A stretch of 41,731 bases of DNA from the NCBI GenBank assembly GCA_965226885.1, contig CBDDEL010000006.1, positions 1 to 41,731 on the forward strand, read 5' to 3'. The stretch comes from Opitutales bacterium. GTDB lineage: Bacteria; Verrucomicrobiota; Verrucomicrobiia; Opitutales; UBA2987. The notes under the pieces are model-generated. The model was not told where the DNA came from. It worked only from the letters and a program-made list of their open reading frames with translations, and searched no databases. The position numbers and the translations under genes are program-made. Below, piece by piece: positions 7,914 through 14,338 of this stretch (its first letter is position 1; every line of letters begins with the position of its first letter).

Positions 7914-9056
7914 ATGGTCTCCCAGAGAATATCTCTGCCCCGGATACCCCTGCTTAAAGGACGCGCGCCCATACTGTTACTGGCGGCTATGGTTTTTCCG
8001 GTGGTTGAATCGATTGGGATCACCGTCACCCTGGAACCGGTGAAAGATACTACCATTTTTTCTGAAAATGGGGGCAAAAGCAGCGCTTTAGGCGATTTAT
8101 TTGTGGGAAAAACCAATGGCACCTCAGGAACAGACTTGCGACGGGCATTACTGGCTTTTAACATTGAAGGCAATATCCCCGCCGGAGCGGTTATAACGAG
8201 TGTCACTCTTACAATGAGGGTCGAAAAAATTAGTAGATTTTCTGCGGCAAACATTATTGCCGTACATAAGCTGAGTCAAGATTGGGGGGAAGGAAGCTCT
8301 AATTCCAGCAATGGAAGGGGATCTAATGCAACCGCCAACGACGCCACCTGGTCCCACCGTTTCTTCAACACTTCAAATACCTGGAATGTAAGCGGTGGAG
8401 ACTTTTCCTCCACCGTATCAGGTTCATTGAATGTATCGAGTACAGGAACAAAAACCTGGAATTCTACGGTTCAAATGGTAGCCGATGTGCAGGATTGGCT
8501 GGACAACCCCACCAGCAATTTCGGTTGGATACTTTCAGGAGGAGAATCTTCTCCAGGTTCCGCCAAACGATTCACCAGCCGCGAAGGCTCCGCCAGTGTG
8601 CGCCCAAAATTGACTGTTGAATTTACTCCGCCGACCAATCGGCAGCGTTGGCTGGACGCGCATTTCAGCCTTGCCGAGCAGGGAATGCCCGAGGTGAGCG
8701 GGGATAGCGTGGACCTGAGCGGAGATGGGATCAAGAACCTGCTGGCGTATGCATTTGACCTCAATCCACACCTATATCAACCGGAAGAACTGCCCCAACC
8801 GGCCATTGACGACAGCGGTTTTCTTTCACTCATTTATATTCGGGATACACGGGCAGACGACCTGATCTACATCGTCGAGGCCAGCAGCGACCTCTCTACA
8901 TGGACGGAGATGGCTCGAAGCGCGGGCGGAGCCGCCCCCACCGGTTCGGGAACCATTTCCGAAACTACCGGAGCCACCACACGGACGGTCACTGTTTCCG
9001 ATACAGAAGCTGGATCCGAGCGATTTATTCGATTAATTGTTGAACGTCAGGAATAA
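7914..9056 (+). CDS. Secreted DNRLRE-like domain protein (paralogue of 6733-7800) with a different C-terminal domain (DxxGDG..NLLAYAF..NP...VEASSDLSTW...FIRLIV)
   Basis: N-terminal ~240 aa align motif by motif with the upstream gene. The C-terminal domain has a pattern I recognise from verrucomicrobial secreted proteins. Confidence 0.75.
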   Translation: MVSQRISLPRIPLLKGRAPILLLAAMVFPVVESIGITVTLEPVKDTTIFSENGGKSSALGDLFVGKTNGTSGTDLRRALLAFNIEGNIPAGAVITSVTLTMRVEKISRFSAANIIAVHKLSQDWGEGSSNSSNGRGSNATANDATWSHRFFNTSNTWNVSGGDFSSTVSGSLNVSSTGTKTWNSTVQMVADVQDWLDNPTSNFGWILSGGESSPGSAKRFTSREGSASVRPKLTVEFTPPTNRQRWLDAHFSLAEQGMPEVSGDSVDLSGDGIKNLLAYAFDLNPHLYQPEELPQPAIDDSGFLSLIYIRDTRADDLIYIVEASSDLSTWTEMARSAGGAAPTGSGTISETTGATTRTVTVSDTEAGSERFIRLIVERQE

Positions 9057-9103: not shown

Positions 9104-9815
9104 ATGAAGACACGAACAACCACTTCACATTCACTTATTTGGGCAATTCTCTGCCTTTCGATAATTTTTACCAACTCGGCACATGCCGGCACATGCCATT
9201 TTTCTTGGCCAGATCGATGATTTTACGGGCGGAACAACGGGCAATTGGGCCATTGGCAACCTGAACAGTCCATTTGCTCCGGTCAATATTTCAAGCGGGG
9301 GGCCATTTGAAGCCACTGAATCGCCGGATGCATTTTTGCAATTAAGCTCATCCGGCACTTCAGGCGCCGGCAGCAAACTGATATCGTTTAACATAAACCA
9401 GTGGACCGGGGATTATATTGGGGCGGGCGTTACAGAAATCAGCCTCTATTTCAATAATATGGGTTCCAATGCCGTTAACATGCGTCTTGGGTTTTTCGGG
9501 GCGGAATCTACATTCAGCACCCAACAGGGTTTTTCCATCAACCCCGGCAGCGGGTGGCAGGAGTTTACCTTCGACCTGACGGCTGAAGATGTCGTCCTGC
9601 TGAGCGGAACCGCATCTTTCGCCCAGGGTTTTGCCAATATTGCGGAAATGCGCATTTTATCTTCAGTCAATCCTGCCTTTTCCGGTGATCTAATCGCCGC
9701 CACGGTCGGGATCGACAACATCACAGCCATACCTGAGCCGTCCTCAATTCTCCTTTTGTTGACGGGAGTCGCCGGACTGTCCCTGGCAAGGCGCATGAAG
9801 GTAAAACGAGCTTAG
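9104..9815 (+). CDS. PEP-CTERM sorting-domain protein; signal peptide disconnected by a 10-bp tandem duplication
   Basis: C-terminus IPEPSSILLLLTGVAGLSLARRMKVKRA. The ATG at 9104 gives MKTRTTTSHSLIWAILCLSIIFTNSAHA, which joins IFLGQIDDF only if one GGCACATGCC copy (9178-9197) is removed. Confidence 0.85.
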
Positions 9816-10851: not shown

Positions 10852-10861
10852 TTACAATTAT

Positions 10862-11385
10862 TCAGCTCCATATTTCTGTGAAGACCTGACGGTAAATTTC
10901 CGTATTTTCGGCCGGAAAACAGCAGTAAACAATTCGCTTGAGAACGCTGCCACTTTCGGGAAAGTCTTTGACCACCTGCAAGGCAATGCGCGCAGCTTCC
11001 CTCAACGGGTACCCGTAAACCCCGGCGCTGATGGATGGAAACGCTATACTTCCGATCCCATTATCCTCCGCCAGGACAAGGGAATTGCGATAACAGGCGG
11101 CCAGTAATTCGGGCTCGCCGCAATCTCCACCCTGGTAAACCGGCCCGACCGCGTGAATGACATAGCGGGCCGGCAGAGACGATACCCTTTTGTTATGCGG
11201 GCCTCACCTGTCGGGCATCCGCCTACCCCCCGGCACTCCTCCAGAAGCCCGGGCCCGGCCGCCCGTTGAATGGCTCCGTCCACACCCCCTCCGCCCAACA
11301 AAGCTTTATTGGCCGCATTGACGATCGCCTCCACTTTCAAACGGGTAATATCGCCAGTGATTATTTCTATTTTTTGTGGGGACAT
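10862..11385 (-). CDS. ymdB: Macrodomain O-acetyl-ADP-ribose deacetylase (YmdB-like), frameshifted by 2 extra bases
   Basis: GDIT, IVNAAN and GGGVDGAI motifs. Removing one CT from CTCT at 11175-11178 gives [15 protein letters not shown]...[14 protein letters not shown] ending at TGA 10862-10864; total length 524 = 522+2. Confidence 0.85.
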
Positions 11386-11441
11386 TTCTTAGCAAACTAC
11401 CATAATATAAAGGATTCAATTTTCCACTTAAAACATTCCTA

Positions 11442-12272
11442 GTGAAAATCATTCTGACAGCGCTGCATCTGGAAGCCCGGCCTCTTCTTCAGCATTTCGG
11501 CTTGAAAAAGGATGCGCTATCCCGCCGCCTGCCGGTTTATCTGGGCGATAATATTTGCCTGGCGGTCTGTGGCACAGGCATGGTCAAGGCGGCTGCGGCG
11601 ACTGGCTGGGTGTTGGGAAAATACGGCGGCCAAGGGGCCGTGGCCATCAATTTCGGCCTGGCCGGGTGCGCCCATTATGCAACGCCCATTGGCGAACTGT
11701 TTTCCATCAACAAGATTACCGACCACGCCACACAGCGATCCTATTATCCCGAAATGGCTTTAAAATTTTCATTGCCGGAAAAATCGCTGATTACATGCGA
11801 CCAGCCCGTGACAAGAGATCGCGCCGCGGACATCGGCGACAGCCTGGCCGATATGGAGGGGAGCGGTTTTTTCAGCGCCGCGGCTACATTTTTACCGGTC
11901 GATTGTATCGTCTGCCTGAAAATGGTTTCGGATCATCTGGAAGATAAGAGGCTAGATAAATCGGGGATGACTTCTCTCATTGAGGCCCGCCTGGAGGATA
12001 TCGCCCATGTTGTCAATATGTGCGAAAGCCTGATTGAAAAGGACCGGGATCCGCTAAAGTTGGAGAACAGGTTGTTTTTGGGTGAACTGGCCAAATCATT
12101 GCGCCTGACTGCCACCCAGCAGCATCAACTGTTTGATTGGTCCCGCGGCTATGTCATTCGGACGGGTAATAACCTCGACTTCATCCGGCCCTTTCTGTCG
12201 CGTCAATTCAGCAGCAAAGCCTCCAGAAACCGCATCCTCGAATCCATCAAGCATGAACTTTTGGCAGAATAA
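11442..12272 (+). CDS. Nucleoside phosphorylase / MTA-SAH nucleosidase-fold protein (PNP_UDP_1) with a helical C-terminal extension
   Basis: TALHLEA, CGTGMVKAA, INFGLAG, DMEGSGF and KMVSD motifs. Confidence 0.75.
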   Translation: MKIILTALHLEARPLLQHFGLKKDALSRRLPVYLGDNICLAVCGTGMVKAAAATGWVLGKYGGQGAVAINFGLAGCAHYATPIGELFSINKITDHATQRSYYPEMALKFSLPEKSLITCDQPVTRDRAADIGDSLADMEGSGFFSAAATFLPVDCIVCLKMVSDHLEDKRLDKSGMTSLIEARLEDIAHVVNMCESLIEKDRDPLKLENRLFLGELAKSLRLTATQQHQLFDWSRGYVIRTGNNLDFIRPFLSRQFSSKASRNRILESIKHELLAE

Positions 12273-13269
12273 TTTTTCCCATATTTACGTGGAAAAATCT
12301 TCCCGGCAGCATCGCTTGACAGACAATATTCTGGCCCGATTCCCCAAGGCCGCCCAGATCGAAATCGATAATTACAAGGATGTGTTTGCCCGGGCGGGGC
12401 AGAACTTTCCCCGGCAAAAAAATCGCATTCAACTCATCCTGGCGGAGGAAAAAGGGAAGTTGCTCTACAGCGGGAGCGAGAATGCGCAGGATTTCGGTTA
12501 CCCGAATTTTTATTATAACTCACTTATTCTCAATTGTCTTTACAATTGCGACTATTGCTACTTGCAAGGCATGTATCCCTCCGCCCATATGGTTGTTTTC
12601 GTCAATCTGGAGGATTTTTTCCTGGCCGTCCAAAAAGCCATTGCGGAACGCCCCGACCCGGCCTCTCCGCTCTACCTGCCCATTTCCTACGACACCGATT
12701 TGCTCGCCTTCGAGTCCATCGTCCCGTTTTGCCGCAAGTGGCTCGAATTTTCTCGAACGGAACCCGATTTGCTAATAGAAATACGAACCAAAAGCGCCAA
12801 CTTTAACATTTTAAAAGGCATCGAGCCGCATTCCAGGGCTATTCTTGCCTGGACGCTTTCACCACAATTTGTGGCCGAAAAATATGAAAATGGAACCCCA
12901 ACTACCGAAAGGAGAATTTCTGCCGCCAAAAAGGCGTTGGATGAAGGCTGGCCTGTGCGGCTTTGTTTCGATCCAGTATTACGGTTTCCCAGCTGGGTGG
13001 GCGCTTATAGGCAATTTTTTGCGGAAGTATTCGCCGCTCTGCCGTCCGAAAAAATACGCGATGCCAGTGTGGGAGTTTTCCGCATGAACGCCGGTTATTT
13101 TAAAAGGATCAAAAAAATGAGAAACGACACCGATATCCTGCATCAACCATACGAGAGGAGCGGCAAAATCGTCAGCTACGCGGAAAAGGATCGCAGAGAG
13201 CTGACCGGAACCATCTGTGAGATGCTGAAGAACTACCTACCAACGGAGAAAATCGAAGTATGGACATAG
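12253..13269 (+). CDS. Spore photoproduct lyase (SplB)-like radical SAM protein
   Basis: NCLYNCDYCYLQG (CxxxCxxC with the SPL-type YCYL), EIRTKS, LAWTLSP, VRLCFDP. The ATG at 12253 overlaps the end of the upstream gene. Confidence 0.85.
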   Translation: MNFWQNNFSHIYVEKSSRQHRLTDNILARFPKAAQIEIDNYKDVFARAGQNFPRQKNRIQLILAEEKGKLLYSGSENAQDFGYPNFYYNSLILNCLYNCDYCYLQGMYPSAHMVVFVNLEDFFLAVQKAIAERPDPASPLYLPISYDTDLLAFESIVPFCRKWLEFSRTEPDLLIEIRTKSANFNILKGIEPHSRAILAWTLSPQFVAEKYENGTPTTERRISAAKKALDEGWPVRLCFDPVLRFPSWVGAYRQFFAEVFAALPSEKIRDASVGVFRMNAGYFKRIKKMRNDTDILHQPYERSGKIVSYAEKDRRELTGTICEMLKNYLPTEKIEVWT

Positions 13270-14338
13270 CCATTGTCACTGGCGCAGCCTCCGGCATCGG
13301 CCTGGCCATAGCCCGCCGATTGGTGGCCTTGGGAATGCGGGTTTACGGACTGGGCGGAAATTATGGGGATACACCCTACTCCCATGAATACTTCGTGCCC
13401 ACTCCCTGCGACCTGGCCGACCCGACCGATATTGCTGAGAGGACGGAGATTATCCTGAAAAAAGAAGGTCACATTTTTCTCCTCGTGAACAACGCCAAGA
13501 CCTACCCCTCCACTCCTTTCCTTGATAAAATCAGCCTCGTTGAGTTGGAAAGAGTTCTGCGCGTCAATTTGCTCTGCCCTCTGATTCTGGCCCGGCTGGC
13601 CCTGCCCGGACTGGCTCGCTTGCGGGGTTTTATTGTCAATATCGTTCCCTCCACCGCAGATCAGGCCAAAGGCGGTCCAGCCGGTGCGGCGGCTGCCGGC
13701 GGATTGCGCTGGCTGGGGCAAAGCCTCTTCGAGGAATGCCGCGAAACCGGGGTCAAGGTTACCTCCATCTTTCCGCAGGCCAACGTTTCCATAAGTTCGG
13801 AACCGCAATCTATCCCAGAGAAAAATCCGCAGAGCGTGATTGATGTGGAAGCGCTGGCCGATGCCGTCGAAAGCATCGTGAAGAACCCCCACGGCAATAT
13901 CATTACGGAAATGGTCATACGCCCCCAGCGGCTCCTGGAAAAGCCGGTTCCTCCGCCCATGGACATCCCTTTTCCTCCAGTCAAAGCGATGAACGATCCC
14001 TATCGCCGCCCGACGGCCTCGGATTTGGAAAAAACGAGGACCGCTATCCAGAAAAAAGCGAAGAAGACGGAGGCCAGGGAAAAAAGCGCGCCAATCCGCC
14101 CAACCAAAAAGACTACCGTAAAAAATTTAGGAAGGCAGTCCCAAATCCTCCCCCAAAGCCCAGGGAGAAATCGCGCTCGCTGACCAAAAAAGCAGCCGTG
14201 GAGAAACCCGTAGCAAAGAAGGCTGTCATTAATAAGCCAAAACCAAAAACGAAAACCCCTCCCGAAAAACCCGCAGCAAGGGCGATAAAGACCAAACGCA
14301 ACCGATCCCGAATTCCGAAAAAAAGGATTTTGGAATAG
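13260..14338 (+). CDS. SDR-family Rossmann protein lacking YxxxK, with a Pro/Lys/Ala-rich basic tail; ORF stops at 14183 but probably continues to 14338 across a 1-bp indel
   Basis: TGAASGIG, CDL, LVNNA and VNL motifs. The -1 frame from about 14080 reads KKRANPPNQKDYRKKFRKAVPNPPPKPREK...KKAAVEKPVAKKAVINKPKPK...ILE*. Confidence 0.75.

Follow-up and report, generated by a model that had tools for sequence, protein, structure and literature searches.

Three overlapping genes lie on the plus strand of the window, i.e. the whole 41,731-nt stretch of an Opitutales genome that was analysed (Table 1). They encode a nucleosidase-fold protein (P1), a radical SAM enzyme with the SPL fold (P2) and an SDR-fold protein (P3), and according to the ORF list they overlap by 20 nt (12253-12272) and 10 nt (13260-13269), exactly as the original prediction had given. 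The gap between P1 and a divergent macro-domain gene measures 56 nt and contains a promoter-like site, which is a weak candidate for the promoter of P1 (five such sites in the region vs. 3.2 +/- 1.8 in shuffled sequences). Downstream follow miaB and a gene for a 181-aa membrane protein, with synteny limited to the Opitutales. In a quick IQ-TREE tree (SH-aLRT support) the nearest relatives of the host are Opitutales, no Spo0A match above the cut-off was found in its genome (best 70.8 of 200 bits), and P2 is the sole PF20903 match in this 96% complete genome, which holds no SplB-type gene. This supports the earlier description of the host as an apparent non-sporulator.

Table 1. Features of the locus (positions in the window; all on the plus strand).
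Feature	Position	Strand	Details
Promoter-like site	11379-11406	+	36 nt 5' of P1; 9/12 consensus matches
P1	11442-12272	+	ORF, GTG start, 276 aa
P1 residues 1-201, MTAN-like nucleosidase domain	11442-12044	+	AlphaFold model, pLDDT 95.3
P1 residues 202-276, four-helix C-terminal domain	12045-12269	+	Family-specific; high pLDDT
P2, SPL-fold radical SAM enzyme	12253-13269	+	ATG at 12253, 338 aa; inside listed ORF 12133-13269
CX3CX2C cluster motif (C95, C99, C102) with Y101 and Y103	12535-12558	+	Invariant in alignments A1 and A3
Tyr146 codon, at the position of SPL hydrogen-donor Cys140	12688-12690	+	phmmer and profile alignments to 4fhc-type chains
P3, SDR-fold protein with Lys/Arg-rich tail	13260-14183	+	Window reading, 307 aa
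Degenerate catalytic site of P3	13647-13697	+	Pro130, Gly142, Ala146 for consensus Ser, Tyr, Lys
A6 tract at which the frames of P3 and of its closest relative part	14120-14125	+	Comparison with L001
Lys-rich tail continued in the +1 frame	14126-14338	+	Reads KFRKAVPNPPPKPREKSR...NRSRIPKKRILE*

P1 matches Pfam PNP_UDP_1 (PF01048) with 34.6 bits (cut-off 25.1), and its fold agrees with that of MTANs (2h8g, Z 23.2, rmsd 2.6 over 197 residues; Foldseek with the P1 model, E about 1e-13). Its structural neighbours include aminodeoxyfutalosine nucleosidases, the ESM Atlas returned 'MTAN family' and 'hypothetical' clusters only, and the VIA-align matches listed for P1 are filled by the MTAN domain. 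E11, D137-M138-E139, K160 and D164 are nearly invariant among 52 sequences and align with the motifs E, ME and (R)xxSD known from MTAN structures; E11, M138-E139 and S163-D164 match the catalytic E12, M173-E174 and Ser-Asp (D197) motifs (MTAN residue names from the PDB titles of 1z5n and 1z5o). The helices of the C-terminal domain span residues 207-219, 224-241, 246-253 and 259-274 in the AlphaFold model. P1 is not among the TIGR01704 (MTA/SAH nucleosidase) matches of its own genome, where a separate gene encodes the TIGR01704 MTAN (76.6 bits, cut-off 73.8) and 12 other PNP_UDP_1 genes occur besides P1. To judge from these profile scores, P1 would be a member of the superfamily and no MTAN equivalog. 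The separate MTAN and the 12 further genes argue against a general role of P1 in 5'-dA/MTA clean-up, and an MTAN located elsewhere in the genome suggests that P1 is dedicated to the module. The best NCBIfam match of P1 is futalosine hydrolase (TIGR03664), with 41.3 bits vs. a cut-off of 124.7; a role in the futalosine pathway was rejected in view of this score and of the lack of any MqnE (TIGR03700) match in the 96% complete genome.

P3 scores 75.9 bits against Pfam adh_short (cut-off 26.6) and carries the Rossmann TGxxxGxG motif as TGAASGIG. The original prediction described the SDR as degenerate, which holds for the protein of the window and does not hold for the module, in which 43 of the 47 aligned family members possess S...YxxxK. 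The four members lacking it (the window and L012, L050 and L006) all belong to Verrucomicrobia, and P3 of the closest relative (L001) carries the same degenerate catalytic motif; in these alignments the degeneracy is a peculiarity of the Verrucomicrobia versions rather than of the module. Relative to L001, dN/dS is 0.14 for the P3 core and 0.52 for the comparable part of the tail, values that place P3 of the window still under purifying selection. Since the catalytic Ser, Tyr and Lys have been lost and purifying selection nevertheless persists, P3 of this Opitutales genome probably serves a non-catalytic role. The end of the module at 14338, as originally given, was not recovered as the stop of the P3 frame, which in the window lies at 14183, but it does represent the stop of the +1-frame tail, which parallels the full-length, single-frame Lys-rich tail of L001. 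One additional A in the A6 tract would put P3 in frame through to 14338; among contigs from public runs two (X1, X3) are identical to the window at this tract, one (X5) has one extra A and one (X7) has two.

Conservation and predicted assembly of the module

The P1-P2-P3 arrangement occurs far beyond chance. A P1 homologue is present in 77 of 80 related loci, covering at least ten phyla, and lies directly upstream of P2 in 76 of these and 4 kb upstream in L064; the SDR gene directly follows P2 in 58 loci and is missing from the other 22. A second set of 15 loci has P1 next to P2 or fused with it in 14 cases and P3 downstream in 8. When the 848 ORFs of the 80 loci were clustered all against all, no further family exceeded 15 loci, and the surroundings of the module contain no conserved transporter, regulator or SOS gene. 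The original prediction had considered the three genes to be one module and had proposed gene-neighbourhood analysis and modelling of pairwise complexes as checks; the gene order recurs in many phyla, well beyond close relatives, and the modelling, described below, brings P1 and P2 together as well. Comparison of P1, P2 and P3 with the anti-phage models of PADLOC-DB 2.0 yielded 0 families at E <= 0.01, and with housekeeping genes in the flanks a role as a defence system was rejected.

Genes of the P2 type are rare in Verrucomicrobiota (2 of 201 genomes). They are near-universal in the Leptospiraceae (89 of 114 genomes searched, among them every one of the 22 species in the genus to which L. 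interrogans belongs) and frequent in Lachnospirales-type genomes from the gut (32 of 301).

At 90% clustering P2 has 3389 relatives of near its own length, and a further set of 1165 proteins of at least 593 aa matches it at E <= 1e-20. Among the longer matches listed, all 120 proved to be fusions of an N-terminal P1 with a C-terminal P2 when compared with our own profiles (the P1 part of one of these fusion proteins, P0126, is 34% identical to P1 of the window). The C-terminal domain of P1 is retained in 103 of these 120 fusions, where the P1 profile match ends at 260-279, and in one locus (L092) this domain alone is fused to P2.

For the separate proteins of the window, a complex of P1 with P2 is predicted: three runs gave ipSAE values of 0.85, 0.85 and 0.86 (best control 0.00), shared at least 93% of contacts and had partner pLDDT values of at least 89. 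The mark applied to such scores is attained by 116 of 157 solved complexes, against 2 of 215 mismatched pairs; for our own alignments, which were used here, these counts are only approximate. Residues 229-240 and 270-276 of the C-terminal domain of P1 form part of the predicted contact surface with P2. Conservation is not enriched at this interface, neither on P2 (0.63 vs. 0.60 for the rest, permutation p 0.32) nor on P1 (0.42 vs. 0.45, p 0.75), and searches of structures and literature found no solved MTAN-SPL complex. The P2 clade is a dedicated nucleosidase-radical SAM machine, fused or docked, for which no described counterpart was found. The combination was originally put forward as undescribed, and our literature searches indeed retrieved no account of the P1-P2-P3 module and nothing relevant on the P2 clade; closed-access papers may hold such an account.

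The radical SAM enzyme and its relation to SplB

P2 shares the full-length fold of SPL, as its structure model (pLDDT 93.6) reaches TM scores of 0.80-0.82 to 4fhc/4fhf at 20% identity, and it matches the Pfam family SPL (PF20903) with 70.4 bits (cut-off 27). Its cluster motif aligns with the CxxxCxYCY motif of SPL and is invariant in both alignments (15 sequences in A1, 52 in A3). The SAM-binding positions are also kept, with D149, K180 and T201 of P2 at the positions of D143, K174 and S195 of SPL. However, P2 scores 73.3 bits with the SplB model TIGR04070, for which the curated equivalog cut-off is 400, and 59.2 bits with TIGR03886 (cut-off 437.55).

At the position of Cys140, the hydrogen donor of SPL according to the accessible part of PMC3467042, P2 possesses Tyr146, which is invariant in 52 sequences. 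Gly74-Ser75 occupy the Ser75-Ser76 position, no Cys is found at the Cys77-type position known from Clostridium, and a nearly invariant Cys238 lies on the strand neighbouring Tyr146. SPL contacts the base and phosphate of the spore photoproduct through Arg193, Glu268, Tyr339, Arg273 and Lys309. Of these, Arg193 aligns with the nearly invariant Ala199, and the hairpin of P2 is four residues shorter, its tip residues Tyr305 and Lys309 aligning with Ser303 and Lys305 at positions that are both variable in the family; the position of the C-terminal Tyr339 is not conserved in the P2 family either. Near Glu268 and Arg273 of SPL the alignment is ambiguous, with an invariant R277 close by. The ends of the barrel strands carry a set of invariant charged and aromatic residues (Y146, E176, R178, W200, R236, D240, R277). 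Two of the five genomes checked, those of the sporeformers Clostridium oryzae and Thermobrachium celere, contain a true SplB together with a P2-type gene.

The original prediction brought in spore-photoproduct (SP) repair as the known activity of SplB-type enzymes; such a role for P2 is not supported, given the SplB scores, Tyr146, the absent SP-binding and hairpin residues and the coexistence with true SplB. The label 'spore photoproduct lyase' or 'DNA photolyase' is almost certainly wrong for the P2 clade. Of the earlier proposal of a module for nucleoside or DNA-lesion processing, one conserved module remains, and the DNA-lesion half is not supported.

Candidate chemistry

To our knowledge, an MTAN-family nucleosidase is the obligatory partner of a radical SAM enzyme in two pathways only, MqnE-MqnB/MTAN and HpnH-HpnG, and both are adenosylations. 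On this precedent we infer, with a probability of roughly 0.4, that P1 and P2 form a single enzyme unit in which radical adenosylation by P2 is followed by removal of adenine by P1. The unit would act on a polar small molecule instead of SP in DNA and would consume the adenosyl part of SAM, with an MTAN-like, adenine-releasing P1 held against P2 by its C-terminal helical domain. P2 would first cleave SAM reductively, after which, by analogy with MqnE and HpnH, the 5'-deoxyadenosyl radical would add to an unsaturated substrate carbon; Tyr146 would possibly quench the radical in the way Cys140 does in SPL. The adenosylated product would then pass from P2 to P1, which would hydrolyse the adenine off as MqnB/MTAN and HpnG do, and in most lineages a catalytic SDR would finally reduce or oxidise the exposed ribosyl moiety. 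Since the SDR is absent from 22 of the 80 loci and catalytically dead in this genome, such a reduction step could not be essential. Against this explanation as a whole stand DNA-repair genes beside the module in a few loci: a UvsE gene follows it in L078, a DNA polymerase I gene follows it in L068, and a family-4-like UDG takes the place of P1 in the divergent locus L041. Adenosylation in particular has against it that, in the accessible part of PMC3467042, the one SPL-fold enzyme that has been studied works by hydrogen abstraction, with regeneration of SAM proposed for it.

Hydrogen abstraction as the known chemistry of the SPL fold (PMC3467042, accessible part) is the basis of the principal alternative, in which ordinary hydrogen abstraction by P2 sets free stoichiometric amounts of 5'-deoxyadenosine. 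P1, bound or fused to P2, would hydrolyse this inhibitor where it arises, and the SDR would act on the substrate, the product or 5-deoxyribose. This explanation, possible though doubtful, fits the MTAN-type motifs and fold of P1, the predicted complex and the natural fusions. It does not account for the family-specific helical domain and the SDR, and the genome already possesses a TIGR01704 MTAN and 12 further PNP_UDP_1 genes. We know of no other radical SAM family with a nucleosidase of its own, even though all of them make 5'-dA, which also counts against it. Cleavage of by-product 5'-deoxyadenosine by P1 had been suggested in the original prediction and is still a live rival.

By analogy with queuosine salvage, P1 could alternatively act first, freeing a base or a modified ribose from an adenosine-type nucleoside; one of these products would then be the substrate of P2, working as a radical lyase, and the SDR would complete the conversion. 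The invariant charged and aromatic residues listed above, numerous at the ends of the barrel strands, would suit a polar ligand, and QueK/QueL provide the precedent of a nucleoside hydrolase and a radical SAM lyase in one operon; however, QueK belongs to a different nucleosidase family (IPR023186) in the accessible parts of the reports (PMC12632869, PMC11130926, PMC11477304), and the module has no conserved transporter or regulator gene as a neighbour, so that we regard salvage or catabolism of nucleosides as improbable. Reversal by P2 of SP, or of a thymine lesion resembling it, in non-sporulators exposed to UV or desiccation, with P1 and P3 as accessories, could draw on the full-length SPL fold, the retained CxYCYLQ motif and Y103, the UvsE, UDG-like and PolA genes in the three loci mentioned and the link of SplB-like enzymes to UDG in SOS-type operons of another clade (PMC3765255, accessible part), but it is very unlikely given the 73.3 bits vs. 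the 400-bit cut-off, the replacement of Cys140 and Arg193 by Tyr146 and Ala199, the shortened hairpin with Tyr305, Lys309 and Tyr339 unconserved, the presence of the P2 type beside true SplB in two sporeformers, and an obligatory partner with the fold and the ribose-binding Glu of a free-nucleoside hydrolase.

The module is widespread and most likely performs chemistry on small molecules and not the repair of spore DNA. This matters because thousands of genes of non-sporulators carry the annotation 'spore photoproduct lyase' or 'DNA photolyase'. If P2 adenosylates, a rare radical SAM chemistry would be extended to a new fold, and the module would point to an undescribed metabolite. In its most specific form, which we put forward as a tentative idea, the SPL fold would host a third radical adenosylation pathway, in which a polar molecule is adenosylated, the adenine is stripped and an NADP-type SDR converts the ribosyl stub, yielding a C5-extended metabolite. 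The natural fusions and the thermophilic members of the family are ready material for biochemistry.

Comparison with known systems

With SplB (TIGR04070; Geobacillus thermodenitrificans 4FHC-4FHG) P2 shares the fold, the CX3CX2C motif with its flanking tyrosines, the SAM-binding Asp/Lys/Ser-Thr and membership of PF20903. It differs in its low identity (20%), its score (73 vs. 400 bits), the Tyr at the Cys140 position, the loss of the SP-base contacts and of the hairpin tip, and the pairing or fusion of its clade with a nucleosidase (P1 in 77 of 80 loci). SplB-like radical SAM enzymes have been linked to genes of the uracil-DNA-glycosylase family and DUF4130 in SOS-type operons (Aravind et al., 2013, PMC3765255, accessible part). 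These operons likewise pair an SPL-related radical SAM enzyme with a hydrolase of N-glycosidic bonds (cf. the UDG in L041), but there, as far as the accessible text of that study goes, the partner is a DNA glycosylase, whereas in 77 of 80 loci of the module it has the free-nucleoside-type MTAN fold and SOS genes are not conserved beside P1-P2-P3. In Clostridioides difficile queuosine is salvaged by the queuosine hydrolase QueK and subsequently the radical SAM queuine lyase QueL (PMC12632869, PMC11130926 and PMC11477304, accessible parts). The likeness lies in the operon of a nucleoside hydrolase and a radical SAM lyase, the difference in QueK being, in the same partial sources, an IU-type nucleoside hydrolase while P1 is of the MTAN type.

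The succession of a radical SAM enzyme and an MTAN-family nucleosidase is shared with MqnE and MqnB/MTAN. In the futalosine pathway MqnE (aminofutalosine synthase) adenosylates and MqnB/MTAN subsequently takes the purine off the adenosylated product. P2 nevertheless has the SPL fold and MqnE (6xi9) reaches only a TM score of 0.40 to it; MqnE with bound aminofutalosine was among the structures compared with P2. P1 differs from MqnB in its score (41.3 vs. 124.7 bits for TIGR03664), and the host genome lacks an MqnE match. In the biosynthesis of the side chain of bacteriohopanepolyols, HpnH (adenosylhopane synthase) and the nucleosidase HpnG bring about adenosylation and adenine removal, and the ribosyl group is then reduced to the polyol. 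We know of no fusion or complex of HpnH and HpnG. The model that we take to be that of HpnG (TIGR03468) is not among the five NCBIfam families matched by P1 at E <= 0.01, and the invariant charged residues that line the P2 pocket do not point to a hopanoid as substrate. The logic of this pathway, however, would use all three gene types of the module.

Composition and conservation of the module

The three genes lie on one strand and overlap by 20 nt (P1/P2) and 10 nt (P2/P3), as the original prediction had stated. Pfam assigns P1 to PNP_UDP_1 (34.6 bits), P2 to SPL (70.4 bits) and P3 to adh_short (75.9 bits). Against curated NCBI models, P1 scores far below the futalosine hydrolase equivalog (41.3 vs. 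124.7 bits) and P2 far below both the equivalog for SplB, the true spore photoproduct lyase (73.3 vs. 400 bits), and the "SPL family" model TIGR03886 (59.2 vs. 437.55 bits).

Table. Location of the features discussed, in the window unless a related locus or another contig is named
Feature	Location	Strand	Description
P1	11442-12272	+	ORF, GTG start, 276 aa; MTAN-like nucleosidase
P2	12253-13269	+	ORF, ATG at 12253, 338 aa; SPL-fold radical SAM enzyme
P3	13260-14183	+	ORF, 307 aa; SDR-fold protein
A6 tract	14120-14125		
Stop in +1 frame	14336-14338		
Macro-domain gene	10852-11385	-	O-acetyl-ADP-ribose deacetylase-like
Macro-domain ORF	11044-11385		
Secreted-looking protein	7914-9056	+	
Secreted-looking protein	9183-9815	+	
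UDG gene	L041:4435-4986		family-4-like
Alpha/beta-hydrolase gene	L049:3934-4992		PGAP1/LCAT-like
Partial fusion gene	L092:1471-2763	-	
UvsE-DUF1722 gene	L078:6706-7959		UV-damage endonuclease fusion
SDR gene	L012:5990-7213		
SDR gene	L006:5987-7450		
SDR gene	L050:5990-7564		
Four PNP_UDP_1 genes	contig C12, 187-217 kb		

A one-genome-per-species search yielded 549 relatives of P2, of which the best 80 loci were kept. These span Opitutales, Gemmatimonadota, Latescibacterota, Bacteroidota, Balneolales, Lentisphaerales, Bdellovibrionales, Fidelibacterota, Leptospira and many Bacillota. A P1 homologue is present in 77 of the 80, next to P2 on its upstream side in 76 and 4 kb away on that side in L064, and a P3 homologue directly follows P2 in 58. 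Clustering of all 848 ORFs gave no fourth family shared by more than 15 of the 80 loci, and those neighbours that carry an annotation are unrelated housekeeping genes. The three-gene module is real, and the co-occurrence by which the original prediction proposed to judge it extends beyond close relatives to many phyla. The P2-type gene occurs in 2 of 201 Verrucomicrobiota genomes (the window's own included), in all 22 species of the L. interrogans genus, in 89 of 114 Leptospiraceae genomes and in 32 of 301 genomes of the Bacillota order to which locus L078 belongs.

The three loci among the 80 that lack P1 (L041, L049, and L059) all derive from uncultured Leptospiraceae and form their own long branch in a quick tree. 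In L041 the nucleosidase is replaced by a UDG gene that lies upstream, 9 nt from the P2-type gene, and in L049 and L059 by an alpha/beta-hydrolase gene that overlaps the start of the P2-type gene. At a further locus, L092, the P2-type protein has just the C-terminal helices of P1 (positions 215-274 of the profile) as its fusion partner, and no MTAN domain is present at that locus.

In the window miaB lies 3' of the module; in several Opitutales that have lost the P3 gene it directly follows P2. The macro-domain gene on the 5' side, on the opposite strand, is divided over two frames, with one ORF covering only positions 1-54 of the 118 of the Macro profile and the remaining domain in another frame (…FTEIWS*), which is due to a frameshift or to an assembly error. 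Two secreted-looking proteins are also encoded 5' of the module, and the C-terminus of the second (…PEPSS, a hydrophobic stretch and RR) is what we take to be a PEP-CTERM-like sorting signal. In Candidatus Epulonipiscium (L078), a gene for UvsE fused to DUF1722 directly follows the three-gene module.

The nucleosidase and its coupling to P2

Residues 1-200 of P1 adopt the MTAN fold (Z 23.2 against 2h8g; Foldseek E ~1e-13 against bacterial MTANs as well as aminofutalosine nucleosidases). The Glu, Met-Glu and Ser-Asp motifs of the MTAN catalytic site have aligned counterparts in P1 that are nearly invariant in the family; residues 202-276 are modelled as four helices of high confidence but no assigned fold. 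The window's genome encodes a separate MTAN outside the module (a TIGR01704 match) and 12 further PNP_UDP_1 matches above the Pfam cut-off, an unusual expansion of this nucleoside phosphorylase/nucleosidase set. Five of these 12 genes lie on contig C12, four of them within ~30 kb.

Among proteins of at least 593 aa, 1165 match P2 at E <= 1e-20, and in all 120 listed of these the profile matches place a P1-like part N-terminally and a P2-like part C-terminally, i.e., in operon order, with an SDR part in none of the 120. The natural fusion P0126 (655-aa type) is 34% identical to P1 across 174 residues. At 15 sampled loci from the order of L078, P1 is adjacent or fused in 14, and an SDR gene lies downstream in 8, also behind a fused gene. 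Pairwise complex prediction, put forward earlier as a check, came out in favour of the pairing: the P1-P2 model reached ipSAE scores of 0.85, 0.85 and 0.86 vs. 0.00 for the best control; the runs had at least 93% of contacts in common, and the partner's pLDDT was 89 or higher. In the benchmark for this score, 116 of 157 solved complexes reached the mark, as did 2 of 215 mismatched pairs; these counts are only roughly valid for P1-P2, for which custom alignments were used. On the P2 side the predicted interface comprises the first 60 residues and residues 290-299, and on the P1 side loops 90-115 and 148-154 plus the helical domain. The residues of this interface are no more conserved than the remainder of the two proteins and conservation, therefore, adds nothing to the complex claim. 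On the basis of the fusions and the complex model, P1 and P2 are predicted to be one physical unit.

The SDR-fold protein and its tail

The term "degenerate" originally applied to the SDR holds for the window protein but not for the module, since 43 of 47 aligned P3 relatives keep the canonical S...YxxxK; the four without it (window, L012, L050, and L006) are all from Verrucomicrobia. Three of these four genes have a long Lys-rich tail. The Tyr/Lys-less ORFs of L012, L006 and L050, with Lys/Pro/Ser-rich C-terminal tails, measure 408-525 aa vs. ~235 aa elsewhere.

The original prediction ended the module at 14338, but the P3 frame in the window stops at 14183. In the closest relative, L001, whose proteins are 85-88% identical to those of the window, the SDR runs in a single frame through a long Lys-rich tail; in the window an L001-like tail goes on in the +1 frame past the A6 tract. 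Contigs of four public runs include two with the window form, one with one additional A and one with two, and only the +1 A form reads through to 14338 and restores the long frame. Because the tract differs among these contigs, the tail is length-variable between strains or assemblies. Relative to L001, dN/dS is 0.52 for the comparable part of the tail and 0.14 for the SDR core, with 0.15 for P2 and 0.20 for P1. Judged from these ratios, the degenerate core is under purifying selection, and in this lineage it is probably kept for a non-catalytic role.

Comparison of P2 with SPL and the proposed reaction

The match between the P2 model (pLDDT 93.6) and SPL extends along the full length of P2 (TM 0.80-0.82, 20% identity). 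With residue roles as set out by Benjdia et al. (2012; PMC3467042), P2 keeps the cluster cysteines, the two adjoining tyrosines and the SAM contacts Asp143, Lys174 and Ser195 (SPL numbering). Unlike SPL, however, it has an invariant Tyr146 at the position of the hydrogen-donor Cys140 and a nearly invariant Ala aligned with Arg193; its beta-hairpin is four residues shorter, and neither Tyr305 and Lys309 of the SPL hairpin tip nor the C-terminal Tyr339 is conserved. The alignment around Glu268/Arg273 is ambiguous. The original prediction of a module for nucleosides or DNA lesions is, therefore, upheld as to one conserved module but not as to lesions, since the lesion features of SPL are absent from P2.

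The P2 family has its own invariant charged or aromatic residues at strand ends (Y146, E176, R178, W200, R236, D240, and R277), which suggests that its ligand is polar, and a nearly invariant Cys238 on the strand next to Tyr146. Both Clostridium oryzae and Thermobrachium celere have a SplB scoring 411 bits as well as a P2-type gene scoring 61-78 bits; P2 is not redundant with SplB. In the window's genome P2 is the sole SPL-family gene, nothing scored above the cut-off for Spo0A, and MqnE was not found.

The module couples a dedicated adenine-type nucleosidase to an SPL-fold radical SAM enzyme. Because of this coupling, the lack of lesion features and the presence of a general MTAN elsewhere, we infer that P2 would consume the adenosyl moiety of SAM and pass it to P1. 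Radical adenosylation followed by adenine removal by P1 seems the best explanation (probability about 0.4), and we rank it first because an adenosylation-nucleosidase-reduction logic would employ all three genes. Second, and somewhat less probable, is on-site clearance of the by-product 5'-deoxyadenosine by P1, a role that the P1-P2 coupling would also suit, with the general MTAN arguing instead for transfer of the adenosyl moiety. A salvage route in which the nucleosidase acts first, as in QueK/QueL, is improbable. DNA repair by P2, to which its fold might point, is very improbable given the missing lesion features.

Radical adenosylation would place the module beside MqnE followed by MqnB/MTAN and HpnH followed by HpnG, in which the nucleosidase is an obligatory partner of the radical SAM enzyme and which, to our knowledge, are the only two such pathways. 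Each of the two is an adenosylation, which in the hopanoid pathway is followed by reduction of the ribosyl group.
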